DNA of 64,000 bases from a virus (Duplodnaviria; Heunggongvirae; Uroviricota; Caudoviricetes), in the IMG/VR virus record IMGVR_UViG_2595698618_000001, positions 79,136 through 143,135 of that record, one strand, 5' to 3'. Below the pieces are notes generated by a model. The model worked only from the letters and a program-made list of their open reading frames with translations. It had not been told where the DNA came from and made no database searches. Within the stretch, counting starts at the first letter, position 1. Each line of letters begins with the position of its first letter. A program made the translations under genes and the position numbers. Shown here piece by piece: positions 4,430 to 20,243 of the stretch.

Positions 4430-4470
4430 TGAATGACGATGCTAATTCCTGCAAGGTCTTCCAGCATCAT
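4312..4470 (-). CDS. small transmembrane protein (~52 aa)
   Basis: Hand-found ORF MMLEDLAGISIVIQWIGIF...; ATGA overlap with stop of 4467..5141; strongly hydrophobic. Confidence 0.45.
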   Translation of the reverse strand: MMLEDLAGISIVIQWIGIFIQFVSFGVAVSSLWWLGVAVWFLGIALWGVSWL

Positions 4471-5141
4471 ACGAGCCTCCCAAGGTGGAATTTAATGGAG
4501 CGAATCCAGTCGGTGAGTGTGCCGGAGCGTCCGAGAATGTCTTGCCGCGTGTTCTCGGAGACGCCCATCCCCTTCATTGCACCGGGTGCAAGGCTCACGT
4601 CACGGAGTTTCTCCCATCCGAACAGTTCGCCAATCTCGTCGTATTCCTCGGTACGCTCGACGCCGATAACGGCATTCTCGTCGTGAATGTCGTGAACGAC
4701 AGCGACCTTATCAGGATGGAACGAACTGTATCCCATATAGACTTGCCCATTTGGATTAGCCGCGACGACGCTTGCAAGATACATCATATCGAATGCATCG
4801 TCGGCTTCGTTTTCGAGTGCAGTCTTGGGTGCGTCTCGTTTGACGACTGGGACGAAGCGGTTCAGCGCCTCGACGTATTCGGTTGCATCCTCGACGGATT
4901 CAGGCTCGACTATCGACAGAGCGCGAACCATTTTGATTCCGAGGTGAACGTTTGCGTCTACGTCCATCTCGTAATTGTCTGCGCTGTCTGGCAGGTTGTA
5001 GAGCATATCCACGAGGCGTGCCATATCGTCCGAAAGTTCGACGCCGTACAGTTCCTCCAAGCCGTGTGAGGCGTCGGTCCCGTAAGACTGGCCGCCAAAC
5101 TTCACGGCATACATCAACACTTGAAGGTCCTGCCGATTCAT
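4467..5141 (-). CDS. hypothetical protein (224 aa)
   Basis: ORF-track ORF, ATG. Confidence 0.55.
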   Translation of the reverse strand: MNRQDLQVLMYAVKFGGQSYGTDASHGLEELYGVELSDDMARLVDMLYNLPDSADNYEMDVDANVHLGIKMVRALSIVEPESVEDATEYVEALNRFVPVVKRDAPKTALENEADDAFDMMYLASVVAANPNGQVYMGYSSFHPDKVAVVHDIHDENAVIGVERTEEYDEIGELFGWEKLRDVSLAPGAMKGMGVSENTRQDILGRSGTLTDWIRSIKFHLGRLV

Positions 5142-6730
5142 TACTGAACCCGTGCCGTGCTTTCCACAAGGTTCTCAGGCTCCAGTTCGAGGATGGTTTG
5201 AAGCGGGTCGTTCGTGCCGTCAATCATATCGAACACGTCAACCACTCGACCTTCGAACTGGTCCTTGAACTGTGCGCCAACCCACTTCCAGAACACGTCG
5301 TGGCTCTGGAGACGGTCACGGTCGCTGGTCGGCTCAGGGAGAGTCAGGTCGCCCGACTCGCTGTGAATGTCGAAAGGCTCCAACTCGTCTTCGGGAACGT
5401 AGAGTTCCGCCCGACCAGCATCCATCGAATCCCACTCATCCTCGTCCACGATGGTCTTACCCTTGTGCGGGCCGAAGATAACACGAGCCTGACCCGGTTC
5501 GTCGTCTTCCGACAGGTCGGAGCGCGTGATGTAATCGTGAGGCGGGAGCGGGCGGTCAGCCGAAAGCGTGTCTTCCGTAACCACCATACTACCCTCATTC
5601 GGACCTTCCGCAACCTCCTGCCCAACAATGTCACCAGCATTGAGCAATTCTCGCGTGATGTACGGGTCCCGTGCTTCCTTCAGCATCTCACGGTAATCCG
5701 AACGCGGGCACGGCATCAGACCCTCGTACCCTTGGTCCGACTTAATAACCTTGCCGGATTCATCCAGCAGGCGAACGTCGAACGGGAAGGGAGCGCCGTG
5801 CTTCCCACCAGAGTCGTTCCGGTCGATGGGCATAGACAGCAGAAGCGTCTTCGTAGAGGCTTCCGCCGAACACGTTGCAACGAAGTCACCCTCCGACTTG
5901 AGTTCGAGGGTAATCATATTGGGGTCGTATTCATCCGTGAACTGCTTGTCACCCCAATCCTCGTTGAAGACCTCCTGACCCGTCTCGTCGTACTCTCGGT
6001 AGATTACGGGGACACGCATCCACTCTGCGAACCGCTCGACAGCGGAGCGAATGTCGAAATTGCCGTCCGGCGTCATCTGGAACTTCGTCCCGTACTGGTC
6101 TTCGGGGAGTTTCCCCATAATCGGCTCAGGACCAGCGAGGCTGACGTAAGTGCTGAAGTTCTCGTCAGTCTGGCGCGAGTGAGTCGTCATAACCATCGAG
6201 TTGTCCAACCCGATAAGTTTGACGAATGACAGCGCACCCATACCGAACTGACCGCTGTAACTACCCGTGTCACGAGCGGCGGAGTTGCCAATCTGACGGA
6301 ACACCTCGTCAACCTCCTTCGACGCCATACCGATACCATTGTCACGAATCTCGACCTTGTTCTCCGAACGGTCCCACGTAACCTCAATACGAGGCTCGTA
6401 GCCATCCTCCGTTCCATAGAGACTGTCCACGTTCAGCGTAGTCTCAGTCCCGTGGTCGAGGAAGTTCTGGACTCGGAGGCAGGCGGTTTCCGCATTCGCC
6501 AGATACTCACGAATCGTAGCCTCCCACGACTCATACAGGTCGTCAGCCACCTTTCGAATCAGGTGTCGCAAGTCAGCCTCAAACGAGAGCGGGTCTGCAC
6601 CGAGCGGGTGGTCGGACCCTGCCGCGTTGAGGTTCTTGTGCTGAACCGAAGTCTTGCCTTCTTGATAGACGGGGTTGAAGCCGTCGTCTGCCGTTTCCGC
6701 ATCTTCCGTGCTGTTATCTCGCTCACTCAT
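5141..6730 (-). CDS. GHKL-superfamily ATPase (Hsp90/MutL/TopoVI-B/MORC-like Bergerat fold)
   Basis: Motifs E-x-x-x-N-A-E-T-A, DNGIGM, GQFGMGALSF in N-terminal half; paralog of 17631..20243. Confidence 0.7.
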   Translation of the reverse strand: MSERDNSTEDAETADDGFNPVYQEGKTSVQHKNLNAAGSDHPLGADPLSFEADLRHLIRKVADDLYESWEATIREYLANAETACLRVQNFLDHGTETTLNVDSLYGTEDGYEPRIEVTWDRSENKVEIRDNGIGMASKEVDEVFRQIGNSAARDTGSYSGQFGMGALSFVKLIGLDNSMVMTTHSRQTDENFSTYVSLAGPEPIMGKLPEDQYGTKFQMTPDGNFDIRSAVERFAEWMRVPVIYREYDETGQEVFNEDWGDKQFTDEYDPNMITLELKSEGDFVATCSAEASTKTLLLSMPIDRNDSGGKHGAPFPFDVRLLDESGKVIKSDQGYEGLMPCPRSDYREMLKEARDPYITRELLNAGDIVGQEVAEGPNEGSMVVTEDTLSADRPLPPHDYITRSDLSEDDEPGQARVIFGPHKGKTIVDEDEWDSMDAGRAELYVPEDELEPFDIHSESGDLTLPEPTSDRDRLQSHDVFWKWVGAQFKDQFEGRVVDVFDMIDGTNDPLQTILELEPENLVESTARVQ

Positions 6731-6758
6731 TGTATTAGTTACTTTGTTGGATTACTAC

Positions 6759-7052
6759 TTAAACCTTTCGCCGCGTCATTTCATTCGCCTCAGAGACAGC
6801 ATCTCGAACGAGGCGTCGAATGTCCTCCTCCGAACGCATACTCTTGATAGCGTCGAACACTTCCGTCAGGGTGACAACATCATCCGTAGAGACAAGAGCC
6901 ACCTCTGCCTCGAAGTTATCACCAAGTTCGACATACATCGTGCTATCGCTGAACGAAGTCTCCTCCGAAACTGTTGCAAGGAAAGCCTCTCCCTCAAGGA
7001 TTTCCTCGGACTCTACCACTACATCTTGACCGTCAGTATACGTGCTTGCCAT
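6759..7052 (-). CDS. acidic hypothetical protein
   Basis: ORF-track ORF, ATG. Confidence 0.5.
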   Translation of the reverse strand: MASTYTDGQDVVVESEEILEGEAFLATVSEETSFSDSTMYVELGDNFEAEVALVSTDDVVTLTEVFDAIKSMRSEEDIRRLVRDAVSEANEMTRRKV

Positions 7053-7076
7053 ATCTTATAATACTCCGGTATCTAC

Positions 7077-7343
7077 TTAACTGTTTCGAATCGACTCAAC
7101 ACTCGCCTCAATAGACTCAAACTGCGTGAGTCCCTGAAACGAATCTCGCACAGTCCCGTCTTCCTCAACGACAATAAACGGGATTCCACGAACGTTGTAA
7201 TTATTAGCAACGCCCTGATGCTCATCCACATCAACACGCTCAACCTCAACGTCAAGTTCGTCTTCGACTCTATCAATAATCGGGTGCTGTGACTCGCAAG
7301 GACCACACCACTCTGCTGTAAACTGTAGAACTTTGATTGTCAT
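7077..7343 (-). CDS. trx: thioredoxin
   Basis: WCGPC active-site motif; size and topology typical of thioredoxin. Confidence 0.8.
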   Translation of the reverse strand: MTIKVLQFTAEWCGPCESQHPIIDRVEDELDVEVERVDVDEHQGVANNYNVRGIPFIVVEEDGTVRDSFQGLTQFESIEASVESIRNS

Positions 7344-7369
7344 ACAATTGTATTTCGCTCGCTATCCAC

Positions 7370-7675
7370 TTAAGGGTTTCGGTCCCAAGGCAATTCATCA
7401 ATCTCCCAATAAATCACATTATCGCCAGAGATAACCGCGCTCGGCTCGAATCCCACAAGATACATCACGCCCATCAGAGCGAGATTATTCCGCATAAATT
7501 CTATGTGGTCAAGAGCGTCGTCACTATCCGAAATGTTCAAATCTTGCTGAACGGCAAACTTCGTGCCATCAGTTTCGGGGAAGTCACACTCTCTCCATTC
7601 GAGTACGACAGGGTTTCCCCACAACTCAAAAACTTTCCGTCCTTTGTCAACTGTAAAGCCTAATGCGAATCCCAT
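7370..7675 (-). CDS. hypothetical protein
   Basis: ORF-track ORF, ATG. Confidence 0.5.
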   Translation of the reverse strand: MGFALGFTVDKGRKVFELWGNPVVLEWRECDFPETDGTKFAVQQDLNISDSDDALDHIEFMRNNLALMGVMYLVGFEPSAVISGDNVIYWEIDELPWDRNP

Positions 7676-7700
7676 ATTGGGATTTACGTGGCCCGTCTAC

Positions 7701-7931
7701 TTAAGGGTATCGACGTTGCACGTATTCGGTGAGTTCGCAATCGGAATCCGAATCGAAGAATAGTAGTTTGTGTACGCGCATATAACCCGAGACTGGGCCA
7801 GACACTTTGATGATTACTTCATCTGTCTCCTTGTCGTACCCCACTACGTCGAATGATGCTTCGCCACTAATATCCATAGTGACCGCACCATTCTCCTTTT
7901 GGAAGTTTACCTTACCAGAATGTTGTCCCAT
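7701..7931 (-). CDS. hypothetical protein
   Basis: ORF-track ORF, ATG. Confidence 0.5.
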   Translation of the reverse strand: MGQHSGKVNFQKENGAVTMDISGEASFDVVGYDKETDEVIIKVSGPVSGYMRVHKLLFFDSDSDCELTEYVQRRYP

Positions 7932-8016
7932 ATATAATAATCCTCCCGAGAGAAACCGCCTACTCTCCTTCCACTCCTTATTCTATATACGATACCCTAC
8001 TACTTAAACCTTTCGA

Positions 8017-8232
8017 TTACTCATTTGTATAATCCTCGGGGTCTATATCTTCGTAGTCTCGTTCCTCCATCTGTTCCTCGATTGACTCGATTGCCTGCTC
8101 CTCTTTGTGAGAAGTAGTATCGTCGTCCACGTCGCAAGAACAGCGAGGATAATCGCAACCAGTCAACGGCCTCGGGCAATCGTGCTTATAATCGTACTGT
8201 CCATAATCGCCTTGATTTGATGGGTTTGCCAT
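8017..8232 (-). CDS. Cys-rich acidic small protein
   Basis: ORF-track ORF starts at GTG inside promoter; ATG (MANPSNQ) has ggcgaaagaCTTAAGTG 22 nt upstream. Confidence 0.5.
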   Translation of the reverse strand: MANPSNQGDYGQYDYKHDCPRPLTGCDYPRCSCDVDDDTTSHKEEQAIESIEEQMEERDYEDIDPEDYTNE

Positions 8233-8248
8233 ACTGTTACTACTCTTG

Positions 8249-8566
8249 CTATTCACTTAAGTCTTTCGCCATACTCAACTCTCCAATTGGCTTCGTCCAA
8301 GCGACACACCGAGAACTGACCGTATACCGAATCGACCAGCCCATTCTGTCAAGAACCATCGTTTTCAGCATACGCTCGTGCGTCCATTGCATAAGTTCTT
8401 CCGTGGTACAGTTATTCGGAACTTTGACACTATCTTTGTGAATTGCTGTGCCCTCGACGTTTCGCATCTTTTTCCAATCCACTTCGAATAGGCGGTCGCC
8501 TAATTGGTATTTTTCGGTTCCCTTCAGAACCATTCTATCATCCTCGTCTCGTCCCCAATTAGCCAT
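8249..8566 (-). CDS. hypothetical protein
   Basis: ORF-track ORF, ATG. Confidence 0.5.
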   Translation of the reverse strand: MANWGRDEDDRMVLKGTEKYQLGDRLFEVDWKKMRNVEGTAIHKDSVKVPNNCTTEELMQWTHERMLKTMVLDRMGWSIRYTVSSRCVAWTKPIGELSMAKDLSE

Positions 8567-8963
8567 CGTGACGCTTGCACGTTTCGATGTAACGCTTACC
8601 CGAGGCGACGAGTTCTGGACTCACAGGAGCGTGACCGGCTCGCGTGTCGTACAGAACCTCCTCCCAGTTCTTGCCTTCCTTTACAGCGAGCATTGCCGTG
8701 ACGACAGCCGTGCTTCGACTGACGCCAGCCTGACAATGGACTAAGAGTTTGTCGCCCGCGTCGTAAGCCTGCCGCGCTTGGCGCACCGCTTGACCGAACG
8801 TGTAGTGGTCGTGTGAGCCATCGGCTATCGGGAATCTATAATCAGCGTTACCCGAATCGTAATCGTCAATTCGGACCATCGAAATGATGGTGTCAAACTG
8901 CTCGTGATGGTTCTTCGCATCAAGGCAGTCACCAATCCACAAGTTGTCTCGTACTTTTCTCAT
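8559..8963 (-). CDS. dual-specificity / tyrosine protein phosphatase
   Basis: CX5R P-loop HCQAGVSRS; upstream WIGD motif. Confidence 0.75.
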   Translation of the reverse strand: MRKVRDNLWIGDCLDAKNHHEQFDTIISMVRIDDYDSGNADYRFPIADGSHDHYTFGQAVRQARQAYDAGDKLLVHCQAGVSRSTAVVTAMLAVKEGKNWEEVLYDTRAGHAPVSPELVASGKRYIETCKRHDG

Positions 8964-9002
8964 ACGAGAGTATACGACGGATAGGGTAAAAAGAGTTTCG
9001 GT

Positions 9003-9866
9003 TTAAACTTGCCAATTATTTCCGCCATATTTCGGACCCACATCTTCCTGCGAGTCGTACATATCTTGGGCGGAGTCGTCCTGTTCTTCAGGCGGGTTCT
9101 TCGGCTGAAGCGTGCCCGTGACCTCACAATCCTGCCGCTCAAGCCAGTCCTGCCACTTATCGTGGGAGTCGCCGCGCTTCTTCTGACCGAACGACGGGAC
9201 ACTATCCGCACGCTTCTGCATATTCCACTCGATGAAGTTGTAGACCGGAACCATCGACCGACCAGCGGCCCACCGCTCCTCACGCTGATTCTGCGGAATC
9301 GGAATCACCAGAATCGGGCCAGCCTCCTCGTCATACTCCTGCGGTTCAGGAGGCAGAGTGCTGAACTTACCGTCGTCAGGGTCGGGAATCGGACGAAAGT
9401 TTTGCGGCATCATCGTCATCTTGAAATCCTGCATATCATCAGGCGTGTCATCATCCATCCCAACCTCGTCCTTCTTGACAGTCTTGACACCATTACCATT
9501 ATCACGCTCGGTCGGCTGTTGGTCATCGTCAGAGGACGGGTCCACGACTTGAGGACCACGTTCCTGCATCTCTAACTCAAATTCCGATAGAGCATCCCAC
9601 GGAACCATATGCCCCTCCGTCTCGATACAGAGGATAGCATCTCCTGCCTCGTGGTCTTCATCATCGCTGTCGGCAACACGCCAATGGTACGAGAAGAACT
9701 CGTTGTCACCGTACTCGTTCTCTGCGATACGCTCAATATCCGACTTGAACTCGTCGGAGAGACGGTAGACCTTGCCGTTAACGCAGACGCTCAAGGCCAT
9801 ATCCTCGTAGGCTTCCGGCTCCTTCTCGGGTTCGTACTCGGACTCTGAATCTTGATTCTCACTCAT
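9003..9866 (-). CDS. very acidic hypothetical protein
   Basis: ORF-track ORF; ATG at 9866 with TTTAAGTA promoter upstream (track start 9872 is GTG). Confidence 0.55.
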   Translation of the reverse strand: MSENQDSESEYEPEKEPEAYEDMALSVCVNGKVYRLSDEFKSDIERIAENEYGDNEFFSYHWRVADSDDEDHEAGDAILCIETEGHMVPWDALSEFELEMQERGPQVVDPSSDDDQQPTERDNGNGVKTVKKDEVGMDDDTPDDMQDFKMTMMPQNFRPIPDPDDGKFSTLPPEPQEYDEEAGPILVIPIPQNQREERWAAGRSMVPVYNFIEWNMQKRADSVPSFGQKKRGDSHDKWQDWLERQDCEVTGTLQPKNPPEEQDDSAQDMYDSQEDVGPKYGGNNWQV

Positions 9867-9904
9867 ACTCACTAATAGGGTAGGGTATTACTTAAACCCT
9901 TCGG

Positions 9905-10498
9905 TTACTGTCTCCAGAAATTCTCAAACTCTGCCTCGGAGGAGAATACGCTGTTGTCTCCTCGAATCAGGTCGAGTTTCTGAGACGAGCCGATGTTGTT
10001 CGTCGTCCCGCTACCATTCGACCGAGACGCCATCTTCCACTTTTCGTTGATGATAATATCCTCGATGGAAACCATATCAATCGTCTTCGCTTCAGGCTCC
10101 CATTGATACGCGAATAGTAGGACCCAATGCTCGTCGTAGGAATTATACGGATACTTAATCCACGGGCTGTCGTCGTCGGGACTACTAAAGTAACTCTTAC
10201 AGGTCCCGAGAGTCACACCGCCTTCGAGCGAGTCGGCATTCTTCATCTGAGCAGTCTTAATATCTAATGCTACTCGCTCGTTCGAATTGAAGGTTATGTC
10301 AGGATATTGGCGTGAGTGGTCTGGTCGTTCTATGTCGTGGACTAATTCAATCTTCTGAATTGCCAATTCCTCGACAATAGCCGTTACTGGATTTGACGTG
10401 CGTGGCACGTCTGAGACGAGGCCGTTTGTATGTAGGATTCCTTCAATGTCCCATTCGAACTCGTCAAATAGCGGCTCGATTTCTCGTTTAACGTTCAT
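9905..10498 (-). CDS. hypothetical protein (197 aa)
   Basis: ORF-track ORF, ATG. Confidence 0.55.
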   Translation of the reverse strand: MNVKREIEPLFDEFEWDIEGILHTNGLVSDVPRTSNPVTAIVEELAIQKIELVHDIERPDHSRQYPDITFNSNERVALDIKTAQMKNADSLEGGVTLGTCKSYFSSPDDDSPWIKYPYNSYDEHWVLLFAYQWEPEAKTIDMVSIEDIIINEKWKMASRSNGSGTTNNIGSSQKLDLIRGDNSVFSSEAEFENFWRQ

Positions 10499-10793
10499 AC
10501 GTTCTTACTTCGATTTTGTGCGGGATAAGTCTTTCGATGTATTCTGTATTGAGATATTCCTTCACTTCAAACTGCGGGCGTGGCTTAAGTGCAGACTGCC
10601 CATAAGTGAAGACAACCATCCATTTCGTCAAGCGGCTGGCATCTTCGAATGGGTAGGTCACGTCAACCAGTTCTTCGACTACAATCTGGTCGCCGTTTAG
10701 TGTTGGCGTAACGCCGACAGTATCGTGATGCAGGAATCTCTCGGTATTTCCGTCCTTCCATTTCACGTCGAATAAAATTCTATAATACTTCAC
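10488..10793 (-). CDS. hypothetical protein (GTG start, coupled)
   Basis: ORF-track ORF; GTGA overlap with upstream stop. Confidence 0.4.
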   Translation of the reverse strand: MKYYRILFDVKWKDGNTERFLHHDTVGVTPTLNGDQIVVEELVDVTYPFEDASRLTKWMVVFTYGQSALKPRPQFEVKEYLNTEYIERLIPHKIEVRTYER

Positions 10794-11077
10794 GTTAGTT
10801 CCTCGATGCGTTCGACTGTTAGTTCTTGCAGTTCGTCCTTAGAATCTGCAATGATTTTAATTTCCCGAGTGTGACCATCGGGGAGTGCCTGAAAGTATGC
10901 GTAGACTCGCTCGTTTTCGTCACGCAGTTCGGCAACCCATTGCTCTACCTCTCCGTAATCTCCATTTAATGCTTTCTTGTGGCGTAGCCTGCGGCCAAAT
11001 TGGACGAGCATCGACGCTCCTCCGACAAAAAGTGTGGCCGCCGCGCCACCAATAATTACAGTAGTTGCTCCTACCAT
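10790..11077 (-). CDS. hypothetical protein with N-terminal TM segment
   Basis: ORF-track ORF, ATG. Confidence 0.5.
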   Translation of the reverse strand: MVGATTVIIGGAAATLFVGGASMLVQFGRRLRHKKALNGDYGEVEQWVAELRDENERVYAYFQALPDGHTREIKIIADSKDELQELTVERIEELT

Positions 11078-11108
11078 AAATCGTAGTACGGCTTACGACT
11101 ACTTAAAT

Positions 11109-11399
11109 CTACTGGTAGTCGAATAAGTCGCCTTGCTTGTCGTCTATATTCGCACGCCTATCGACTTCTCGAATGACGACAACAAAGCCATCGTCTAAGA
11201 GTGGCTCAATCTTCCACGTTTCCAAATCAACGTCAAGTTTACTGGAAACTTTCCTGACTTGTGTGTAAAGCCAATCCCATCCAATGTCCTCGTAGAAGAA
11301 CATATGGTATAAATACCGAGAATCCTCTACTGACTTTTTAGAGTAACCCGCTTGAACTTGATTGTGCAGTTTAGTCTGCACTAAATTTGCGTCTGTCAT
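11109..11399 (-). CDS. hypothetical protein
   Basis: ORF-track ORF, ATG. Confidence 0.5.
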   Translation of the reverse strand: MTDANLVQTKLHNQVQAGYSKKSVEDSRYLYHMFFYEDIGWDWLYTQVRKVSSKLDVDLETWKIEPLLDDGFVVVIREVDRRANIDDKQGDLFDYQ

Positions 11400-11429
11400 T
11401 CATCTCACTATACTATATTTATCGCGCTA

Positions 11430-11660
11430 CTACTTAACGTTTTCGGCTACTACGGGTGGGGTGCGTTGTTCCATAATCCACCAGAAGACCATCCCGATAG
11501 TGGCGGTTACTGCTACAATCACCGCGCACATATGGATTGCCGCAATTATTGGAAGTGTTGCAAACTGAAAAATAACGAATGTTGCAAAAACAATAACTGC
11601 GCTTAACAGATACGCGACCGCACTCACCAACCCCACCGTCTTATGTAATGGTTCAGCCAT
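11430..11660 (-). CDS. small membrane protein (2 TM)
   Basis: ORF-track ORF; hydrophobic. Confidence 0.5.
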   Translation of the reverse strand: MAEPLHKTVGLVSAVAYLLSAVIVFATFVIFQFATLPIIAAIHMCAVIVAVTATIGMVFWWIMEQRTPPVVAENVK

Positions 11661-11663
11661 AAT

Positions 11664-11771
11664 TCATATTTTCGCTCCTACCGCCTTAAGTTTACCAACG
11701 AATAGTTGAACTCCAATCAACGTCCCGACTACAGGAAGTCCTATCAAGACTTTTAGAAGGTTTCGAAGCAT
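11664..11771 (-). CDS. micro membrane protein (35 aa)
   Basis: Hand-found ORF MLRNLLKVLIGLPVVGTLIG...; cgaaaggTTTATATAC promoter ~26 nt upstream. Confidence 0.35.
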   Translation of the reverse strand: MLRNLLKVLIGLPVVGTLIGVQLFVGKLKAVGAKI

Positions 11772-11835
11772 CCTTCCTATTGTGCTATACGTAATCAAGG
11801 TATATAAACCTTTCGATTTAGGCGGCCTCTAACTC

Positions 11836-12180
11836 TCACAACTGGATTCGCATCATATCCATTTCGAGCATTTCATCCAACTTGTCGATTACGTATTGTG
11901 GAATGTCAATATCTGCCTCCGATAAGTGTGCTTTATCCCAATGCACATCCTCGACAGTACGCCAATTCCGACGAGAAATCATCGAATCAGCCGAGCAACG
12001 CTTCTCAACGTAATGCATCAGCGTCCACTTATCCCACTCCTTAGCGTGACTAAACGTAAAGTCCTTCTCAACTAACTCGCCTTCTTCCTCATCACGAACG
12101 GTGAATGTGAAGGAGACAGTAGGCTCTCCGTACAAATGTCCATCATCATCCTGAAACTCAGTCGTATCCGTCAGTTTCAT
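11836..12180 (-). CDS. hypothetical protein
   Basis: ORF-track ORF 11836..12360 begins at TTG; internal ATG (MKLTDTTEF) overlaps ATGA with stop of TM ORF 12177..12353. Confidence 0.45.
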   Translation of the reverse strand: MKLTDTTEFQDDDGHLYGEPTVSFTFTVRDEEEGELVEKDFTFSHAKEWDKWTLMHYVEKRCSADSMISRRNWRTVEDVHWDKAHLSEADIDIPQYVIDKLDEMLEMDMMRIQL

Positions 12181-12353: not shown

Positions 12354-12377
12354 ACCGCAATGTACGCCGTATACGTA

Positions 12378-12752
12378 TTAAAACTTTTCGGTTCGCGTTT
12401 CGATACCCTCACCGTTGAAGCAGATAAGCATTCCACCATCAACGTCGAGATTCGCATCTTCAGCGCCTAAGTTCAAGTAAGAACGCAACTGCTCCATACC
12501 TGCCTTAGAACCAGCCTTAAGTTCGACAATAATGAGAACATCGTCATTGTGACCTACCACAAGGTCAGGGCGGCGGTAGGCGATAGGCTTCCCTCGGTAC
12601 ATAATGGAGAAATTAGACTCAGAGGAAAACTCTACTCCTCTGTGCGAAAGTTCAGTCTCCATTGCATTATGATATGCTCGTTCTGAAAGTCCAGAACCAA
12701 GTTCCTCAAAGACCCGTTCTGCACTCTCCTCAATCTCCTCGTACAAAGACAT
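12378..12752 (-). CDS. PD-(D/E)xK nuclease, Holliday-junction-resolvase (Hjc)-like
   Basis: RRPDLVV...IIVELKAGS (D...E-x-K) pattern; ATG at 12752 has cgaaagATTTATAAG promoter 22 nt upstream (track start 12773 is GTG). Confidence 0.5.
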   Translation of the reverse strand: MSLYEEIEESAERVFEELGSGLSERAYHNAMETELSHRGVEFSSESNFSIMYRGKPIAYRRPDLVVGHNDDVLIIVELKAGSKAGMEQLRSYLNLGAEDANLDVDGGMLICFNGEGIETRTEKF

Positions 12753-12790
12753 ACGTGTGTTTACGTCTTCCACACTTATAAATCTTTCGA

Positions 12791-13015
12791 TTATCTCAAG
12801 TCTTCTCTATCGTACAACATAGCATACGCGACTCGAACCATCCCGCGCATTTCCTCCTGCTCACGCTTGGGAAAGTAGTGTAACGGTTGCTCCTCACGCA
12901 TTTCACGAACTTTACCCCTCGTACAAGAGAGGTAATGATAGCCGCGTGAAGTATCGAATATTAACGTGACCTTCTTTTGAGCCAAGTTATAGCGGAAGCC
13001 ATCTATTTGAACCAT
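12791..13015 (-). CDS. hypothetical protein
   Basis: ORF-track ORF 12791..13105 overlaps plus-strand gene; internal ATG 13015 has ccgaaaTGGTTATATAG promoter 20 nt upstream. Confidence 0.4.
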   Translation of the reverse strand: MVQIDGFRYNLAQKKVTLIFDTSRGYHYLSCTRGKVREMREEQPLHYFPKREQEEMRGMVRVAYAMLYDREDLR

Positions 13016-13039
13016 ACGAATAATTCGACGGCAGACTAT

Positions 13040-13089
13040 ATAACCATTTCGGCCAAAGATATAAGTACCCGTAGCGCGAATAGATTCAT
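13040..13089. promoter_or_regulatory. back-to-back divergent BRE/TATA promoter pair at strand-switch
   Basis: ccgaaatggTTATATAg (minus, drives 13015) and ccaaagaTATAAGTA (plus, drives 13090) share the same ~40 bp. Confidence 0.55.
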
Positions 13090-13200
13090 ATGAATCCAGT
13101 AACATTCATCAAAGAATTAGCACTCGGTATCGCAGTAGCCATCGGACTACTCGCAATCGCATTGTTCTTTATAATCGTACTATTAATCCTCGTACTATGA
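13090..13200 (+). CDS. micro membrane protein (36 aa)
   Basis: Hand-found ORF MNPVTFIKELALGIAVAIGLLAIALFFIIVLLILVL; promoter 22 nt upstream; ATGA junction with next gene. Confidence 0.45.
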   Translation: MNPVTFIKELALGIAVAIGLLAIALFFIIVLLILVL

Positions 13201-13433
13201 GAGTCCGAAAAGAACGTGAAGCGTGGCGCACCTACGATTTCGGAGTATACGGTGGCAAGCCAGTTGCACTTCAACAAAAGTGGGCGCTCTATTCAGTCAA
13301 AGAGCAAGAAACAAAACCCGCGCATCGTGGAAGAAACATCGCCATCTCTACCGATTTAGAAGCGTTCCCGACTGACGAATGGCGTGTCGTAGATATGCGC
13401 GAACTCGTAGACTACGATTTCCTCGATTCGTAA
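13197..13433 (+). CDS. hypothetical protein
   Basis: ORF-track ORF, ATG. Confidence 0.5.
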   Translation: MRVRKEREAWRTYDFGVYGGKPVALQQKWALYSVKEQETKPAHRGRNIAISTDLEAFPTDEWRVVDMRELVDYDFLDS

Positions 13434-13465
13434 CCTTTAAGGTAGTTGGGTCCTAATCTTTGAGT

Positions 13466-13798
13466 ATGGTTAGAAAGATTGCAACGTGTGAACACGAGCG
13501 GCAGTTTGTAAAGCAGGCGATTAAGAGCCTTCGAAATGACTTAGAGGAGAACGTCTCTGGAGTGCAGAAGGTACGTTCTGTCATCGGAGATGAATTTGGC
13601 GACGTGGAAGTTCGCCTCTCTGGAAAGGAGGCCGCACACGACGGAGACTGGATTAATATCTACGAGGTCGAGGAATATGCACAGAAGCATAACTTCAAGA
13701 AGGGGTCGGCTCACGCTTACAACGAGCCGATTCGTGGGCAGATTGATGCTCACGTCAGTATGACCTTCTTCTACACATTTCCCGAGGTGGCAGAATGA
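13466..13798 (+). CDS. hypothetical protein
   Basis: ORF-track ORF (track start 13460 is TTG; ATG at 13466 fits agtATG pattern). Confidence 0.5.
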   Translation: MVRKIATCEHERQFVKQAIKSLRNDLEENVSGVQKVRSVIGDEFGDVEVRLSGKEAAHDGDWINIYEVEEYAQKHNFKKGSAHAYNEPIRGQIDAHVSMTFFYTFPEVAE

Positions 13799-14070
13799 GC
13801 GACGATGGCACGAACGTAAACTTCGACTTCAGCCCGACTGACTTCATCGTGGGTCTGGCGAGTATTTACGTTCTGTTCAATTATGGTGCGTTCCTCGCGT
13901 GGGCGGCAGGACTCGGCGCACCCTTCGCTGGACTTGCGACCATCATCGTGTATCTGCTCATCATTGTCGACGTCATTGAGACAATCGCGCTGGCTATCAT
14001 TGGAATCATCGCAGTCTTGTTCATCGTCGTTGCGCTGTTCAAGATATTACAATGGATTGTTAATCGGTAA
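13795..14070 (+). CDS. membrane protein (2-3 TM)
   Basis: ORF-track ORF; hydrophobic. Confidence 0.5.
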   Translation: MSDDGTNVNFDFSPTDFIVGLASIYVLFNYGAFLAWAAGLGAPFAGLATIIVYLLIIVDVIETIALAIIGIIAVLFIVVALFKILQWIVNR

Positions 14071-14101
14071 GGTTAAGTAACCTCGACTCCTTTTCCCCAA
14101 T

Positions 14102-14419
14102 ATGAGCAAGAAAGTTCCATATTGGGAAACCATCGAATACATTGGTGGCGGCTACGTCTTGCAAAAGAAGATGGCCGCCAAACTCAATTCTGACGGCAAT
14201 GCAGTTAAAGAGCGAGAGCCATACTTAAAGGTAATGGACTCGAATCAGGTGACGAAGACCTATCACTCTCGCAATGGTCCGACTGATTATAAAGTAAACC
14301 AGATTGAGGAATTATCCTCGGTACATAGAATCGTTCACGCTTCTGAATTAGAGGGAGTGGATACGGACGAACTTGCGGCAGATGCCGTGAAACGCTTCGG
14401 TTCAGAAATGGAACTATGA
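14102..14419 (+). CDS. hypothetical protein
   Basis: ORF-track ORF, ATG. Confidence 0.5.
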   Translation: MSKKVPYWETIEYIGGGYVLQKKMAAKLNSDGNAVKEREPYLKVMDSNQVTKTYHSRNGPTDYKVNQIEELSSVHRIVHASELEGVDTDELAADAVKRFGSEMEL

Positions 14420-14793
14420 AGCGAACAAAGACAGAGTTCCGCGTAGAGTCGGAGGAGATTGAAGTAATGGATTGTGAGTTCTGTGGGCAGGAGGAGCCTG
14501 TTGACGAATTAAAAGAAGTGAAGATTAACCCTCGCGCTCACCTCGCAGTAGATTATAGCGACACGATGCAGAAAGTAATTGAAAAGAAGGAGAACGAAGG
14601 GTGGGTCTTTGAAGAACGAGCGCCAACGTGGGACAGAGACGAATATCCAACTCCGAAGATGCATTCGTACAATCCGGGGATGGTCAAACTCTCTGTGAAA
14701 GAGATGATGGAAATCTTCGACGAGGCGTTGCAGATGCACGACGATGGCTCTATGAAAGTCTGCGCCTTCTGTGCGAAAAACTTAAGTAGATAG
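14416..14793 (+). CDS. zinc-ribbon protein (CEFCG...CAFC)
   Basis: ORF-track ORF; two CxxC pairs. Confidence 0.5.
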   Translation: MKRTKTEFRVESEEIEVMDCEFCGQEEPVDELKEVKINPRAHLAVDYSDTMQKVIEKKENEGWVFEERAPTWDRDEYPTPKMHSYNPGMVKLSVKEMMEIFDEALQMHDDGSMKVCAFCAKNLSR

Positions 14794-14810
14794 CCCGCGT
14801 TTGACTGAGT
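14781..14810 (+). promoter_or_regulatory. BRE/TATA core promoter (aaaaaCTTAAGTAgatagc...gagtATG)
   Basis: Consensus element 22 nt upstream of ATG 14811. Confidence 0.5.
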
Positions 14811-15938
14811 ATGACTTGGATTACAGAGACGGCTGACCGAATCGAGGCAGAACGTGATGCGCCTTATGTCGTAAAGGGAGGCGTCTCTCCCTCGGGGACT
14901 ATTCACGTCGGGCACTTAAACGAACTTCTCTTGCCGTACTTCGTGGCAGAGGAACTACGCTCGCGTGATTATCGTGTCACACAGTATATGACTGTAGACG
15001 ACCTCGACCCAAATGTGGATAACGCAGACGCACACGTTGACGAGTTAGAACGAGTAATCAATGCACTCGGCATCGACGTTCACATCTGGCGAGCAAGCGA
15101 TGCTTACGGGGGCGGCGCACACTTAATTAACCTCTCCCACGCTCGAAAGAGTCGAAGCCGGATTGAAAGCATCGTCTCTGACTATCAGGATACTGAAGAC
15201 TTCCAAATCTTTGATGGCGAGAAGATGCCGTGGCGTCTCGAATGGGCGGCACAATGGGCTACCCTCGAAGTAGACTTTGAGCCTTACGGAAAGGACCACG
15301 CTGAAGGCTCCTTTGAAAGTGCGGCACGAATCGCAGAAGCCGCGTTTGGAATCGAGCCTCCTGTAGACTTCGTGTACGAATGGTTCACTCTCGACGGAGC
15401 CGCAATGTCTTCTTCGAGCGGCGTGAACGTCTCGGCAGAAGACGTGCTACGCTGGATTTGCCCACAAGACTTGATGGCACTCTTTCGACGGAATCCGCAA
15501 AAGCAACGCGACTTCTCCGTTGAAGACATTCCATCAATGGTGGGAAGTGTAATCGAGGATGGACCAACCTACAAGGAGGCGAGTCGCTACTGGCTTGGAT
15601 ATACGTCCCCGTCTCGAAACCTATTCCGCGAGCAATCGTGGAGTATGGATTACTTCCCGCGAGTCGAAGCCGCCGGTCAATGGGCAGAAGACTTCGGAGA
15701 AGACTACACGCTTGAATCAACCGAAGCGGATTCGGATGTGGACGAGGTAAACGCCCTGCTCGAATACGCAATGGACGGCTATTCGCCAGAAGACGTGCAA
15801 TCCTACGCATACGAGCAGGCGAAGGAGTACGGTGACGTGGGCGACTTCTTCACTCAACTGTATCGACACGTTGTTGGGCAAGATGACGGCCCGCAGGCAG
15901 GAGAACTACTCTCGGCAATCTATGGGAGTAACACTTAA
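14811..15938 (+). CDS. class-I lysyl-tRNA synthetase-like protein, truncated (catalytic Rossmann core only)
   Basis: VSPSGTIHVGHLNE resembles archaeal class-I LysRS HIGH region (ITPSGxxHxGNxRE); AAMSSSSG resembles its KMSSS(KG) motif; ~375 aa versus ~520 aa for full LysRS. Confidence 0.5.
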   Translation: MTWITETADRIEAERDAPYVVKGGVSPSGTIHVGHLNELLLPYFVAEELRSRDYRVTQYMTVDDLDPNVDNADAHVDELERVINALGIDVHIWRASDAYGGGAHLINLSHARKSRSRIESIVSDYQDTEDFQIFDGEKMPWRLEWAAQWATLEVDFEPYGKDHAEGSFESAARIAEAAFGIEPPVDFVYEWFTLDGAAMSSSSGVNVSAEDVLRWICPQDLMALFRRNPQKQRDFSVEDIPSMVGSVIEDGPTYKEASRYWLGYTSPSRNLFREQSWSMDYFPRVEAAGQWAEDFGEDYTLESTEADSDVDEVNALLEYAMDGYSPEDVQSYAYEQAKEYGDVGDFFTQLYRHVVGQDDGPQAGELLSAIYGSNT

Positions 15939-15962
15939 GTAGATAGCCACCAATGTTCTAAT

Positions 15963-16271
15963 ATGGTCAAAATCAATCTGGACGACTACGACAAAGCGGC
16001 AGAGTTCGGTCCTGTGACGAAGTTCGAGCAGACTGTTCGGACTCCCGGCTGGCCTGACGATGAGGCTGAGTGCCGTAAGGTGATGTACGAAGCCGGGCAC
16101 TACTTCAAGGTCGCACGAATCAGCACCCTCGGTTGGGGCGTCACGGAATACAACGAGAACGGGCGTCCAATTCGACGCAGTTCCAGCGAGAACCTCGGTT
16201 ACTTCGATAACGAGGAAGATGCTCACGCTCAGGCCCGAGAGTGGGTGGAGGAATATGTATCGGAGCAGTAA
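15963..16271 (+). CDS. hypothetical protein
   Basis: ORF-track ORF, ATG. Confidence 0.5.
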   Translation: MVKINLDDYDKAAEFGPVTKFEQTVRTPGWPDDEAECRKVMYEAGHYFKVARISTLGWGVTEYNENGRPIRRSSSENLGYFDNEEDAHAQAREWVEEYVSEQ

Positions 16272-16530
16272 GCCAAGCAAGGAATACGCTTGGGAGACTG
16301 TTGACGTGATGACGATTGGACAAACTGCTTACGCCTATCAGCAGAAGTATGAAGTTCGGCAAGAGATGGAGAAGAAAAGTGATAGGCCCTCGTACAGCGA
16401 TGGCCTTGGACTCGGTGTAGGTGTTGGCCTTACGATGGTCCCGACTGACGAGCATCGGTTGAAGAAGATGAAGGATACGCTCAACGAAGAAAGCATCAAG
16501 GAAGCAACGCAGGCGTGGGAAAATGAGTAA
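16255..16530 (+). CDS. hypothetical protein
   Basis: ORF-track ORF trimmed to ATG 16255 to reduce overlap. Confidence 0.4.
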   Translation: MYRSSKPSKEYAWETVDVMTIGQTAYAYQQKYEVRQEMEKKSDRPSYSDGLGLGVGVGLTMVPTDEHRLKKMKDTLNEESIKEATQAWENE

Positions 16531-16753
16531 GTATATCTGTAGCCAATGTACCGGGCGCTCTGGTGAGGAACACACGTTTCACCTGAGTCAGACGCCTAAA
16601 GCGTGCCCGTATAATGGTTGTCCCGAGCGATACATCAAGTCTATCGAAACGTATTTACGGGAGCAACTCGAAGATGCAGAGTGGGAAGCAGAGCGATGGG
16701 AAGACAAATACTACGAGTTAAAGGAGAAACAAGATGGAGATACCGATAACTAA
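16523..16753 (+). CDS. zinc-ribbon small protein
   Basis: CSQC...CPYNGC. Confidence 0.5.
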   Translation: MSKYICSQCTGRSGEEHTFHLSQTPKACPYNGCPERYIKSIETYLREQLEDAEWEAERWEDKYYELKEKQDGDTDN

Positions 16754-17441
16754 TCACCCGAACCTGCCCGAAGGCGTGCCGCTTGTTGCGGATTTCCACG
16801 ATATGCGGAATCGGTTGAGTTACTACTATCCAATCCTTCGAGATACGGATGGGGTTCGTACACCGATTACCCAATTTTACCGAATCGAGGGAGACTTCGG
16901 CTCATATCCCGAACTCGAATACCGCGAGATTACACGCTTTATGCAGGAACAGCAGATGCGCGAAGCGTTCGTGCGCGGAGATTATTCGAGTGCGAAATAC
17001 GACGAGTCAGGGAGACATATCGAGAGTCAGGACCCTTACGATATTGAGGGAACTGTCATTGAAATGATGCGACAACTCGCCCGAGGGAAACGGTATCTCG
17101 GTTCCCGAATTGCAGTACGGGAATGGGTTCCACCAGAGAAGGAGGTTCGCTACTTCTTCAAGAATGGACATATCTCGTATAAGGCAAGCCTTGACGACCC
17201 GATGGAGTTCCCCGATGAACAGGCCGAACGTGCGGCAAAGGCATTTGACAAGTATGCGTGGTCCTGCGATTTCATCAAGCACGAGGATACCGGAAAGTGG
17301 TATTGTATAGATATGGGACTCGACGGACTCTACCATAGCAAGAAGTACGGCTGGACTCCGCATAGTGAGCATCACGACGAGAAGTATTCCCCGAAGCAGT
17401 ACGTCGATGAGATGCCGAATCCGAAGGCTTTAAGGTACTAA
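16734..17441 (+). CDS. hypothetical protein (235 aa)
   Basis: ORF-track ORF, ATG. Confidence 0.55.
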   Translation: MEIPITNHPNLPEGVPLVADFHDMRNRLSYYYPILRDTDGVRTPITQFYRIEGDFGSYPELEYREITRFMQEQQMREAFVRGDYSSAKYDESGRHIESQDPYDIEGTVIEMMRQLARGKRYLGSRIAVREWVPPEKEVRYFFKNGHISYKASLDDPMEFPDEQAERAAKAFDKYAWSCDFIKHEDTGKWYCIDMGLDGLYHSKKYGWTPHSEHHDEKYSPKQYVDEMPNPKALRY

Positions 17442-17457
17442 GCGAGAATTGTAGAGT

Positions 17458-17595
17458 ATGCCAGCAAAATGCAAATACTGCGGTTACGAGATGAGCATCT
17501 GGACACTCATATGGGAGCGCATCAAGAGTGGTGCTATCCCTGTGTGTCCCGGTTGTGAAGCGAACGATGAAACTGTCGAAGTACGAATCGAGTAG
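17458..17595 (+). CDS. zinc-ribbon mini-protein (45 aa)
   Basis: Hand-found ORF MPAKCKYCGYEM...CPGCEAN; agtATG context. Confidence 0.4.
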   Translation: MPAKCKYCGYEMSIWTLIWERIKSGAIPVCPGCEANDETVEVRIE

Positions 17596-17630
17596 AAAGA
17601 GTTAAGTAGATACCCACCCAATCAACTAAT

Positions 17631-20243
17631 ATGAGTTCAGAACAAGACGCGGCCAAGACCGACGACGAGTTTGCACAGTACCGCTCCACCGCTGGAGCCG
17701 AGGTTAAGACGGCAGATGTTGCGAGTGATACGCACCCCCTCAAGGCAGAAATCGGGGACCAGAAGGAGCGCATCTATGACGCAAAAATCGCCGGAGAACG
17801 GTTCGTTCAGTTCTACGACGATAGTGCGGCGGCTATCCGCGAGTATCTTTCCAACGCGGAGACTGCCTGCATCCGTCGAGCGCGGCACGAGTTGCTGGAT
17901 GCTGGTGTCTCGGAGCAGGACATTCCGAGTAACGTGGCAGACCTCATCGAGATGGCGCAGGAGGTTGCTGGATACGAACCTCTTATTGAAGTGACGTACA
18001 ATCGCAAGAGCGACGAGACTCGCCTCGTTATCGAGGATAACGGTATCGGCATCTCTGTCGAGGAATATCAGGTGCTTCAGCGCATCGGCTACTCCACGTC
18101 TCACGGAAACGGTGAGCGTCTTGGGCAGTTCGGGATGGGCTTTATGTCAGGGTTCCAACTGACGAGTATTCACGGTGCGTTCCGTATGTTCACCCGGTCG
18201 TACCTCACGGAAGAAGCGTACAGCACGGTGGAGTACGTGGCAAACTGTGAATATCTGGATGGCGCACCCGAGACTTACGGGACCCGTTTCGAGTTCCCCG
18301 AGTTCGGTGAGGCGGCGAAGGAGATTCACATCCCCGCAAAAGTGGCAGAATATGCGGAGGGGATGCGCGTCCCCGTCCTGTACCGGGATTTCAACTCCTC
18401 GGGTCAGGAGACTGCGGAGAGTGACGACTTCCTTCCCCGCAATATCGAGGATGATTACAGCGATGATAGTCTCGTCGTTACGTTCGAGAACGACTACTTC
18501 AAGGCTGTTATGAGTCCTGATAAGCCGACGAACCGCCCCAACTCTCACGAACTTGTCACGTACAACGTGACGATGCCTATTCGACGCAACCTCGATTCGT
18601 GGAGTACGAACGACAAGTTCGAGGCTCCGTGGAAGTGGGACTTCCGTGGCAAGAAGGAAGACGGCCCCATCGTGAAGTGCGAGTCCGATGCCTCCGTCGA
18701 GGGTCTGGTTCCTGTCGAGAACAGCAAGTACGACAATATGATTCAGGAACAGCAGGCCAAGCATCTCCCGATGAGCGACGTTCCCGACGACGCAATCGTG
18801 ATGCCCGGTCCTGCGTCCAGCCGAGACTCCTATATGGGAGGCCACGACGACTTCTGGAAGTACGTGTCGGAGTGCCTGAACGAAGCGTGGGCTGAGATTG
18901 CCAAGGAGCGTTTCGAGAACCTCTCGTCGTGGGATGACTTCAAGGCTCTTGAGCGTGACGAGAAGAACGCGCTCTACCGCGCCTACAGCCAGTTCGGTCC
19001 TTCTTACGGGACGAACGACCCTGATAACATTCAGGAGACGCTCGAAGATGCATTCGGCGTCACGGTCCCGAAGGACGTGTGTGAGAAGATTGACAAGTCT
19101 CGCAAGAGTCTGATGGTGGTTCCACGAGGTCACAATCAGGCTCACCACAAGAAGCCTGCCAAGCGCAACAAGAAGAAGATTTGGCAGATTATTGACGAAG
19201 CGCCCGATGGCGTCTATATGGGCAAGTCCGTCAGTCAGAAGAAGGCGGAGATTGCGTGGGGTCTTGGCGATACTCACGTCATTCGGATTCAGCCTGACGA
19301 TGGGCAGACCTCTAAAGAGCGATACGCGGAATTGGAGGAACTGTGGGGCTTCAAGAAGTTGAAGGACCTTCCCAACTCGAAACTCAAGGAGCGTCTTCCG
19401 AATCTGGACGACGACGTTGCTGAGGAGTGGGAGAACGCGGATTACGTCAACAACACGTCCTCGTCTGGCGGTCGTCGGACGAGCCGTGACCCTACCACGA
19501 AGCGTATCAAGGTTCGTGTCGGGAAGCGTAGCCACCGCTACTTCAGCCGCTCGAAAGTGTCGTACATCGTGGACCAGTTGGAGAACGACGATGGGATTCG
19601 TGCAGGCAACTACACGGTGAAGAAACTCATCATCTACGACCAGACGAAGGTGGGTTCTACCCCAAGCACTCGGCACGCTGACAAGTACGGCGAGCCGGGA
19701 ATCGCTGTCGCCGCTGTCCCGAAGTACGTCTACAACTACCTCAAGGACAAGAAGAACGTCTACACGGACTACGACTCCCTCAAGGATGAACTGGTGCAGG
19801 ACGAGTTGGACGAGTATGACAATTCGGAGACGCTTATCTTCGCATCGAGCGAAGTGTTCAACGAGTACGAATCGAACGAGCAGGAACTTGTCAGCCTCCT
19901 GAACGAACACTCCGACGCTGGCCTCAACGAAGACGCAGACATTGAGGTTTACAGCACGAGTGACGCGAAGAACATCAGCCACGCACAGGGCACGGACTTC
20001 AATGCGAAGGTCGTCTCTGTTAACGGGAACCGTGCGGCTCGCGGCCTGAGCGAAGCCGACTACAAACTCAATCTGGTGGACCTGAAGTTCGCCCGAGAGG
20101 TTCCTGAGATGGACTTCGACGCGCCTGAGTTCAAGCAGGTCTTCGGTCGCAAGAAGTACCTCGACGCGGATTCCGCGAAGATGAACCGTGGCATCGAGAT
20201 TGTTAAAGCCTGCGGAGGTAAGTGGCCGAGTCAGCAGGACTGA
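17631..20243 (+). CDS. large GHKL-superfamily ATPase-domain protein (870 aa)
   Basis: N-terminal region paralogous to 5141..6730 (REYLSNAETACIRRA; IEDNGIGIS; GQFGMGFMSGF); long basic/acidic C-terminal extension. Confidence 0.7.
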   Translation: MSSEQDAAKTDDEFAQYRSTAGAEVKTADVASDTHPLKAEIGDQKERIYDAKIAGERFVQFYDDSAAAIREYLSNAETACIRRARHELLDAGVSEQDIPSNVADLIEMAQEVAGYEPLIEVTYNRKSDETRLVIEDNGIGISVEEYQVLQRIGYSTSHGNGERLGQFGMGFMSGFQLTSIHGAFRMFTRSYLTEEAYSTVEYVANCEYLDGAPETYGTRFEFPEFGEAAKEIHIPAKVAEYAEGMRVPVLYRDFNSSGQETAESDDFLPRNIEDDYSDDSLVVTFENDYFKAVMSPDKPTNRPNSHELVTYNVTMPIRRNLDSWSTNDKFEAPWKWDFRGKKEDGPIVKCESDASVEGLVPVENSKYDNMIQEQQAKHLPMSDVPDDAIVMPGPASSRDSYMGGHDDFWKYVSECLNEAWAEIAKERFENLSSWDDFKALERDEKNALYRAYSQFGPSYGTNDPDNIQETLEDAFGVTVPKDVCEKIDKSRKSLMVVPRGHNQAHHKKPAKRNKKKIWQIIDEAPDGVYMGKSVSQKKAEIAWGLGDTHVIRIQPDDGQTSKERYAELEELWGFKKLKDLPNSKLKERLPNLDDDVAEEWENADYVNNTSSSGGRRTSRDPTTKRIKVRVGKRSHRYFSRSKVSYIVDQLENDDGIRAGNYTVKKLIIYDQTKVGSTPSTRHADKYGEPGIAVAAVPKYVYNYLKDKKNVYTDYDSLKDELVQDELDEYDNSETLIFASSEVFNEYESNEQELVSLLNEHSDAGLNEDADIEVYSTSDAKNISHAQGTDFNAKVVSVNGNRAARGLSEADYKLNLVDLKFAREVPEMDFDAPEFKQVFGRKKYLDADSAKMNRGIEIVKACGGKWPSQQD

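Follow-up and report, generated by a model that had tools for sequence, protein, structure and literature searches.

Paralogous Hsp90-like GHKL ATPases encoded in fused and split forms by the haloarchaeal virus HGTV-1

In Hsp90, GyrB, MutL and MORC, the GHKL ATPase domain is followed by a middle domain of a beta-rich type. Among the proteins of large viruses, an N-terminal Hsp90-like GHKL domain is also found in phage rIIA, a protein of 640-840 amino acids (aa) with a conserved N-terminal part of ~300-350 aa and a variable C terminus, whose gene usually has a co-oriented partner gene downstream of it. T4 rIIAB protects against RexAB and, to our knowledge, the mechanism of rIIA is still unexplained more than 60 years after rII genetics. 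Here, we describe a family with a likeness to rIIA in these respects, found in a 64,000-nucleotide stretch of viral DNA (IMG/VR record IMGVR_UViG_2595698618_000001, positions 79,136 to 143,135), hereafter the window. The window encodes two paralogous units, gp203 and gp172 together with gp171, of an Hsp90-like GHKL ATPase family of haloarchaeal viruses and related plasmid-like elements.

HtpG has been reported missing from most Archaea (PMC1525184, PMC12874294), and gp172 and its relative gp93 of HSTV-2 have previously been listed as 'Hsp90 chaperone' (PMC8651126). Since Hsp90 is generally absent from Archaea, Hsp90-like ATPases of haloviruses would be either a chaperone brought in by the virus or a repurposed clamp. 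The Hsp90 label of gp172 was already known, but we found no literature describing the C module, the split architecture or the relation of gp172 to gp203 as paralogs. What is new is the presence of gp203 and gp171 in the same system, the split and fused architecture, the C module, and a structural link from the haloviral family to phage rIIA. One vague label and two 'hypothetical proteins' become a defined three-gene system with a domain grammar of N-M, C1 and C2, in which natural fused, split and trimmed variants mark domain boundaries for experiments.

The core common to gp172 and gp203

The span 5141-20243, in which a sequence-only reading of the window had placed two GHKL paralogs, matches Halogranum tailed virus 1 (HGTV-1, KC292026, 143,855 bp; Halomagnusviridae) with 100% identity. 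All positions given here are window positions, i.e. record positions minus 79,135. The two open reading frames (ORFs) are exactly as that reading described them: gp172 (HGTV1_172; 5141-6730, minus strand) encodes 529 aa and is deposited as 'HSP90 chaperone', and gp203 (HGTV1_203; 17631-20243, plus strand) encodes 870 aa and is deposited as 'hypothetical protein'. Their proposed paralogy is upheld by BLASTP, which aligns 388 aa at 33% identity (E = 2e-42) and also picks out a short second block of conservation. Both proteins are included in PHROG 23723, a family without assigned function (E = 0 for gp203), and both pass the gathering score of Pfam HATPase_c_3 (31.6 and 28.4 against a cutoff of 25). 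Judged by these comparisons, gp172 and gp203 are true paralogs. The span contains both genes, but it also takes in the ~30 unrelated genes that lie between them, with a divergent transcription point near 13.1-13.4 kb, and it leaves out a third component, gp171 (HGTV1_171; 4467-5141, minus strand; 224 aa, labelled 'hypothetical').

To define the family, homologs were gathered from hypersaline metagenomes, which gave long forms of ~850-890 aa (134 matches) and short forms of ~505-533 aa (165 matches); 67 long and 70 short homologs were aligned for conservation. Profile-profile comparison of the two forms (probability 100%, E = 4e-104) aligned residues 15-523 of the short form with residues 10-447 of the long form, and homology is thus not confined to the Bergerat module, as the sequence-only reading had it. 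The common part amounts to ~440 aa: an Hsp90-type N-domain and a middle domain rich in beta structure are followed by an invariant loop, P-x-P-x-S-x-R-D, and by a long helix. An insertion of ~75 aa (about residues 360-435) is present in the short form and absent from gp203, and the long form has ~420 further C-terminal residues. The C-terminal extension that had been noted for the larger protein therefore exists, but it is not ~600 aa long, nor is it uniformly charged, being acidic with two basic patches. No transmembrane segments are predicted.

In gp203, the predicted Hsp90-type GHKL ATPase domain is encoded at 17763..18395 on the plus strand (about residues 45-255), as delimited by Pfam, PDB profiles, hhalign against HtpG and invariance. 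It is followed by the beta-rich, transducer-like middle domain with the long helix (18396..18947, plus strand; about residues 256-439). The corresponding segments of gp172 are a GHKL domain at 5981-6598 (minus strand; about residues 45-250) and a middle domain with the 75-aa insertion at 5411-5980 (minus strand; about residues 251-440). Membership of the GHKL superfamily is apparent both from the motifs (E-x3-N, D-x-G-x-G and G-x-x-G-x-G) and from curated profile and fold matches. The sequences REYL(A/S)NAETAC, DNGIG(M/I) and GQFGMG, quoted earlier for the two proteins, are indeed present in both. Across the 67 long homologs, motifs I-III (E71, N75, D136, G138, G140, G165, G168 and G170) are invariant or >95% conserved, and the same holds across the 70 short homologs (E75, N79, D130, G132, G134, G160, G163 and G165). 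Because all catalytic residues are kept in both paralogs, both are predicted to be active ATPases, and probably are. A putative ATP-lid segment is present between motifs II and III. In the AlphaFold2 models, its predicted local distance difference test score (pLDDT) is <50 at residues 153-167 of the long form and 148-152 of the short form, which would fit a mobile lid; the gp203 model as a whole has a pLDDT of 85.5.

The invariant loop reads M-P-G-P394-A-S-S-R398-D in the long form (P394-A-S-S-R398-D at 18804-18827, plus strand, inside the middle-domain segment) and L-P465-E-P-T-S-D-R471-D-R-L-Q in the short form (about 5315-5341, minus strand). In both forms a long helix follows, which in gp172 is the C-terminal helix. 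Upstream of the loop there is a nearly invariant M-P-I-x-R-N motif, with R319 in the long form (M-P-I-R-R319-N in gp203) and R304 in the short form. At the level of pattern only, the loop resembles the catalytic loop of Escherichia coli HtpG (L-N-V-S-R336-E-I-L-Q) and the A-P-S-R-E-A-L segment of T4 rIIA, with a long helix following in both. We infer that R398 and R471 are candidate catalytic arginines.

As regards the class of GHKL protein, gp172 alone matches the HtpG N-domain 2ior in PDB (E = 1e-7) and other Hsp90s too, and a search of PDB with the single gp203 sequence gave no match, a family profile being required. With the family profiles, the top 60 PDB matches listed are all N-domains of Hsp90, HtpG, TRAP1 or GRP94, with E-values from 1e-13 down to 3e-15 and 8e-14, and these matches end at about residue 250 even against full-length Hsp90 chains. 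In NCBIfam, 'HSP90 family' and HtpG score best, with 31-43 bits where the cutoffs are 371-455. For a direct comparison we used a profile of seven HtpG sequences, from E. coli and from plasmid-borne genes, the latter chosen since a genome scan yielded only enterobacterial HtpG at least 89% identical. As assessed by hhalign, this profile aligns with the long family (E = 1.5e-17) and the short family (E = 7e-17) over HtpG residues 4-274, an alignment that takes in the Hsp90-specific N-terminal strand/helix-1 segment (G-x-E-x-x-x-F-Q/E-A/S-E/D ... L-Y). There is no family-specific sequence signal of GyrB/ParE, Topo VI-B/Topo VIII, MutL or MORC in the haloviral family, and its likeness to MORC2/3 in structure is that of the generic two-domain core. 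We therefore assign the N-domain of gp172 and gp203, from its sequence, to the Hsp90 class and not to MutL, TopoVI-B, MORC or histidine kinases. Fold alone does not tell the class of the second, transducer-like domain; it is sequence that puts the ATPase domain with Hsp90.

On the matter of labels, some rIIA homologs in GenBank are annotated as 'HSP90 family molecular chaperone', e.g. H66 of Escherichia phage vB_EcoM_KWBSE43-6. Annotation pipelines evidently confuse rIIA with Hsp90 N-domains, and the 'HSP90 chaperone' label of gp172 may be of the same kind.

The C module, gp171 and the split architecture

The C-terminal extension of gp203 is predicted to form two domains. C1 (18948..19460, plus strand; about residues 440-610) is an alpha/beta domain with the motifs DGVYMGK, Y565 and GW/F-KKLK-x-LP and with a basic patch, and C2 (19488..20240, plus strand; about residues 620-870) consists of two poorly conserved alpha/beta sub-domains. 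Searches of Pfam and PDB found no relatives of C1 or C2 among known proteins. When 1.8 billion representatives were searched exhaustively with HMMER, 55 proteins proved to contain the C module. Most of these are long forms, in which its position is the same, and roughly ten consist of ~500 aa and stand alone. The gene for one of the latter (P0237) lies 9 nt downstream of a short-form gene's 3' end. Y565 is the sole invariant residue of C1/C2, where Y-x(7)-G-W/F-K-K-L-K-x-L-P is the best motif. Conserved acidic residues are absent from both domains, which argues against a Toprim or nuclease active site. Residues ~480-530 and ~610-645 of gp203 are strongly basic within an otherwise very acidic protein, and these patches may bind nucleic acid or acidic partners.

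We ran hidden Markov models (HMMs) of C1 and C2 on the six-frame ORFs of 51 sequences, i.e. the window and 50 fetched loci; the IMG/VR scan gave just three short-form loci, and the loci were therefore taken from the metagenome scan. gp203 is matched by the NM, C1 and C2 domain HMMs. The third gene, gp171, matches the C1 HMM (E = 9e-19) as a stand-alone C1 domain and, by BLASTP, has collinear matches to gp203 residues 440-488 and 520-580. When the gp203 model was compared with viral structures using Foldseek, R4TMR3 was also matched (E = 3e-5, TMt 0.48); this is a 224-aa HGTV-1 protein, which agrees with gp171 in length and origin. gp171 lies directly downstream of gp172, and its start codon overlaps the gp172 stop codon by 1 nt (TAATG). 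At 13 loci, an ORF of 500-550 aa for C1+C2 comes directly after the short ATPase; no partner ORF is present at 11 loci whose downstream sequence is long enough to show one, and two loci have a short form with a fused partial C1. The C1 match of gp171, together with the 13 split loci, indicates that the short paralog corresponds to the N-terminal half of a split long protein. gp172/gp171 is accordingly best described as a split, trimmed copy of a gp203-type protein, with gp171 a predicted C1-only remnant of the C-terminal half.

Long and short forms occur together on five viral contigs (the window, L007/L008, L102, L103 and L136), on none of which the short form has a complete C1+C2 partner. 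On the other hand, where a contig has a full split pair with 8-10 kb of sequence to either side, no long form lies within that distance. In a rough neighbor-joining tree, partner status follows clades, and the pattern thus represents few independent events. It is compatible with the speculation that a short form lacking the C module works together with a complete long form. gp171 did not match the ORFs on either side of the short-form gene of contig L008, because that virus is without a C1 partner.

Among isolates, both forms are found together only in HGTV-1. The Mincapviruses (HSTV-2, HRTV-2/7/11 and HCTV-6/15) have one long relative of ~25% identity, labelled 'HSP90 chaperone' or 'HTPG domain', and no short paralog. 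These proteins, including HSTV-2 gp93, belong to the same family (PHROG 23723) and have the same N-M-C1-C2 architecture as gp203 (Foldseek E = 2e-39). Distant 974-aa relatives of gp203 are encoded on the Halorarum halophilum plasmid CP058532 (L009, 11109-34033) and on a second element (L010), in both cases between an archaeo-eukaryotic primase (AEP) gene and a ParB_N gene. The conserved plasmid- or provirus-like block of these two elements also encodes a RecA/KaiC-like ATPase, an RNase H-like protein and a PadR regulator.

gp172 and gp203 are each predicted to have their own promoter resembling a B recognition element (BRE) and TATA box. The same 30-nt element, TTAAGTAG-N14-AACTAATA, with identical spacing, lies upstream of gp172 (6733..6762, minus strand), where it ends 2 nt before the ATG, and upstream of gp203 (17602..17631, plus strand). 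This composite has exactly two copies in the window, both just upstream of the paralog start codons, with 0 expected by chance. The upstream regions of the long and short forms in contig L102 also resemble each other. The shared element suggests either co-regulation or an inherited upstream region. More widely, the TATA-like box K-TTAAGTAG has 18 sites in the window against 0.6 expected (e.g. at 6755, 7073, 8000, 11099, 17601, 20257 and 23936). Most copies lie on the strand of the local genes, and the box is probably one promoter class of HGTV-1.

Possible roles of the family

A complete unit would have five parts: an Hsp90-type N-domain, a beta-rich middle domain, the arginine loop (P-x-P-x-S-x-R-D) with its long helix, C1, and C2. 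gp203 would be such a unit in fused form, and gp172 would be the N+middle half of a split unit, whose other half in relatives is the ~500-aa C1+C2 protein encoded directly downstream. In HGTV-1, this downstream half would have been cut down to gp171, with C1 only. By analogy with other proteins that combine a GHKL domain with a transducer domain, the N-domains would bind ATP and dimerise. An arginine of the middle region, R398 in gp203 and R471 in gp172, or alternatively R319/R304, would complete the active site, and the C module would hold the dimer together and/or bind substrate. The paralogs may act as separate homodimers or as an asymmetric heterocomplex.

We tentatively favor, without calling it probable, the view that the family is a protein-remodelling, chaperone-like machine supplied by the virus in a host lineage that is generally without Hsp90. 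This is in line with the Hsp90 class of the N-domain, with the paralogy and the invariant GHKL motifs, with the co-occurrence of the paralogs in at least five related viral contigs, with the shared upstream element, with the split architecture and with the lack of transmembrane segments. Several results weigh against a chaperone-like role. The middle, C1 and C2 regions have no detectable sequence homology to the middle and C-terminal parts of Hsp90, as assessed by hhalign against HtpG (E at least 0.27); Pfam HSP90 (PF00183) is matched by neither paralog; and the best NCBIfam score, 43, is some 10-fold lower than the equivalog cutoffs of 371 and 455. The putative equivalence between the S-R-D loop and the S-R-E catalytic loop of Hsp90 is one of pattern only, and rIIA outranks a genuine giant-virus Hsp90 as a match of gp203 among viral structures. 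In addition, the basic patches of the C module and the plasmid relatives between primase and ParB genes fit a role with nucleic acid. Sub-alignments of the middle region against Hsp90 and rIIA were not significant either (hhalign E 0.03-0.5). An early match of C1 to the C-terminal domain of HtpG (E = 0.054) vanished with a more diverse HtpG profile. In view of the missing middle and C-terminal homology, neither gp172 nor gp203 qualifies as a bona fide Hsp90. Unlike Hsp90, HtpG, TRAP1 and GRP94, the family has a mostly-beta middle domain and a ~420-aa C1+C2 module in place of the C-terminal dimerisation domain, occurs both fused and split, and has been found only in haloarchaeal viruses and plasmid-like elements.

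The first alternative is that these proteins are factors in host-virus conflict, an archaeal-virus counterpart of phage rIIA that guards infection from an abortive-infection or exclusion system. After gp203 itself and HSTV-2 gp93, some 15 rIIA proteins are the best Foldseek matches of the gp203 model in BFVD (E 2e-13 to 1e-8), in alignments that span most of both proteins and rank above Catovirus Hsp90 (1e-10) and phage topo II. The TM-scores of these alignments are just 0.26-0.43. A profile of seven rIIA sequences is matched by hhalign (probability 95%, E 3-6e-8), but rIIA and HtpG are about as close to each other (E = 1.6e-10) as rIIA is to the haloviral family. With family HMMs at the same database size, rIIA proteins reach 8-26 bits, against 45-59 bits for Hsp90 N-domains. 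The rIIA PHROGs are matched by 16-21 of the 70 short-form members, a minority, with E-values of 1e-3 to 5e-5 and coverage of motifs II-III only. Where the haloviral family has the S-R-D loop, T4 rIIA has A-P-S-R-E-A-L and then a helix, and the layout of the split genes is like that of the rIIA-rIIB pair. However, the C module shows no similarity to rIIA C termini or to rIIB (E at least 0.23; downstream partners against rIIB, E = 0.4), no rIIB homolog was identified, and none is annotated in the window. The haloviral partner (C1/C2) is unrelated to rIIB and has demonstrably been detached from the same protein. We consider an rIIA-like function unlikely, albeit deserving of serious attention.

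We conclude that the haloviral family, rIIA and Hsp90 are three branches with a common Hsp90-like N-domain. It is a doubtful extension of this view that the family is the archaeal-virus rIIA counterpart, and that rIIA-type proteins form a divergent branch of Hsp90-like clamps with a common catalytic S-R-E/D loop, predating the split between bacterial and archaeal tailed viruses. If this is true, the three forms seen here, fused, split and trimmed, would demonstrate that the 'variable C terminus' is exchangeable or detachable as a separate subunit, and they would make the rII mechanism, long unexplained, tractable by structural means.

A second alternative is a DNA-directed GHKL clamp. It would resemble MORC or MutL, or else be an atypical factor of DNA topology or partition; its C module would bind DNA, and viral DNA would be trapped or remodelled by the ATPase gate as it is replicated or packaged. 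Consistent with this, gp203 residues 480-700 include basic patches (isoelectric point 8-9), unusual for a halophilic proteome, and the plasmid/provirus relatives are encoded between AEP primase and ParB_N genes. Also, gp172 and gp203 lie in a DNA/RNA-metabolism region of the virus, surrounded in the window by genes for nucleic-acid metabolism and auxiliary functions. Nonetheless, the N-domain is of the Hsp90 class by sequence and not of the GyrB, MutL or MORC class; the C module is without a Toprim, winged-helix or nuclease domain, a known DNA-binding domain or conserved acidic residues; and the annotation of the window includes no A-type topoisomerase partner. The family as a whole lacks the Toprim E...DxD motif, a winged-helix domain with a catalytic tyrosine, the MutL endonuclease domain and the CW or coiled-coil domain of MORC. 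In PADLOC there is just a faint match to MzaB (E about 1e-3, 15-16 bits), and membership of a MORC, paraMORC or other GHKL defence system was rejected. Toprim or Topo VIII identity was likewise rejected, with no conserved E...DxD and no Pfam or PDB match in the C-terminal 430 aa of gp203 and no catalytic-tyrosine domain. All in all, a DNA clamp appears improbable. The interpretation given in the sequence-only reading is thus partly supported: of the roles it suggested, counter-defence is kept as a possibility, with rIIA providing the best viral structural matches, and the Toprim domain that it proposed to look for, like a relation to TopoVI-B or MORC, is not borne out. Finally, a sensor histidine kinase or other signalling GHKL protein, which that reading had named as an identity that would overturn its own, can be dismissed as exceedingly improbable: in its favor there are NCBIfam and Pfam HATPase_c matches, weak and below cutoff, whereas fold scores are against it and there is no DHp/HisKA domain.

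Other features of the window

Two ORFs upstream of gp203, the hypothetical protein gp201 (16734-17441, plus strand) matches the R2K-clade ATP-grasp family PF14243 (28.1 against a gathering score of 26.3). On the other side, gp207 (21378-22394, plus strand; 338 aa) has no Pfam match. It is separated from gp203 in HGTV-1 by a LAGLIDADG endonuclease gene (20405-21037), and a homolog 60% identical to it lies directly after the long GHKL gene in contig L007. It is possible that gp207 is a conserved neighbor of gp203, or this may simply be synteny.

Further upstream, gp197 (14811-15938, plus strand; 375 aa) is a homolog of class I lysyl-tRNA synthetase, with Pfam tRNA-synt_1f matched in three stretches (E = 2e-51). 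The window also contains a single tRNA gene, tRNA-Gly(UCC), at 41969-42053 on the minus strand, opposite to the surrounding plus-strand genes. An intergenic element of ~68 nt is present in at least 21 copies between 47200 and 63040, one per gap between the small ORFs gp275-gp313, which are minus-strand genes. It consists of a perfect palindrome, CTCCTCGTG-CC-CACGAGGAG, with TATA-like boxes on both sides (TTTATATACC ... CTATAAAAAGG), and looks like a repeated cassette of a promoter and a hairpin, the latter a putative terminator or operator.

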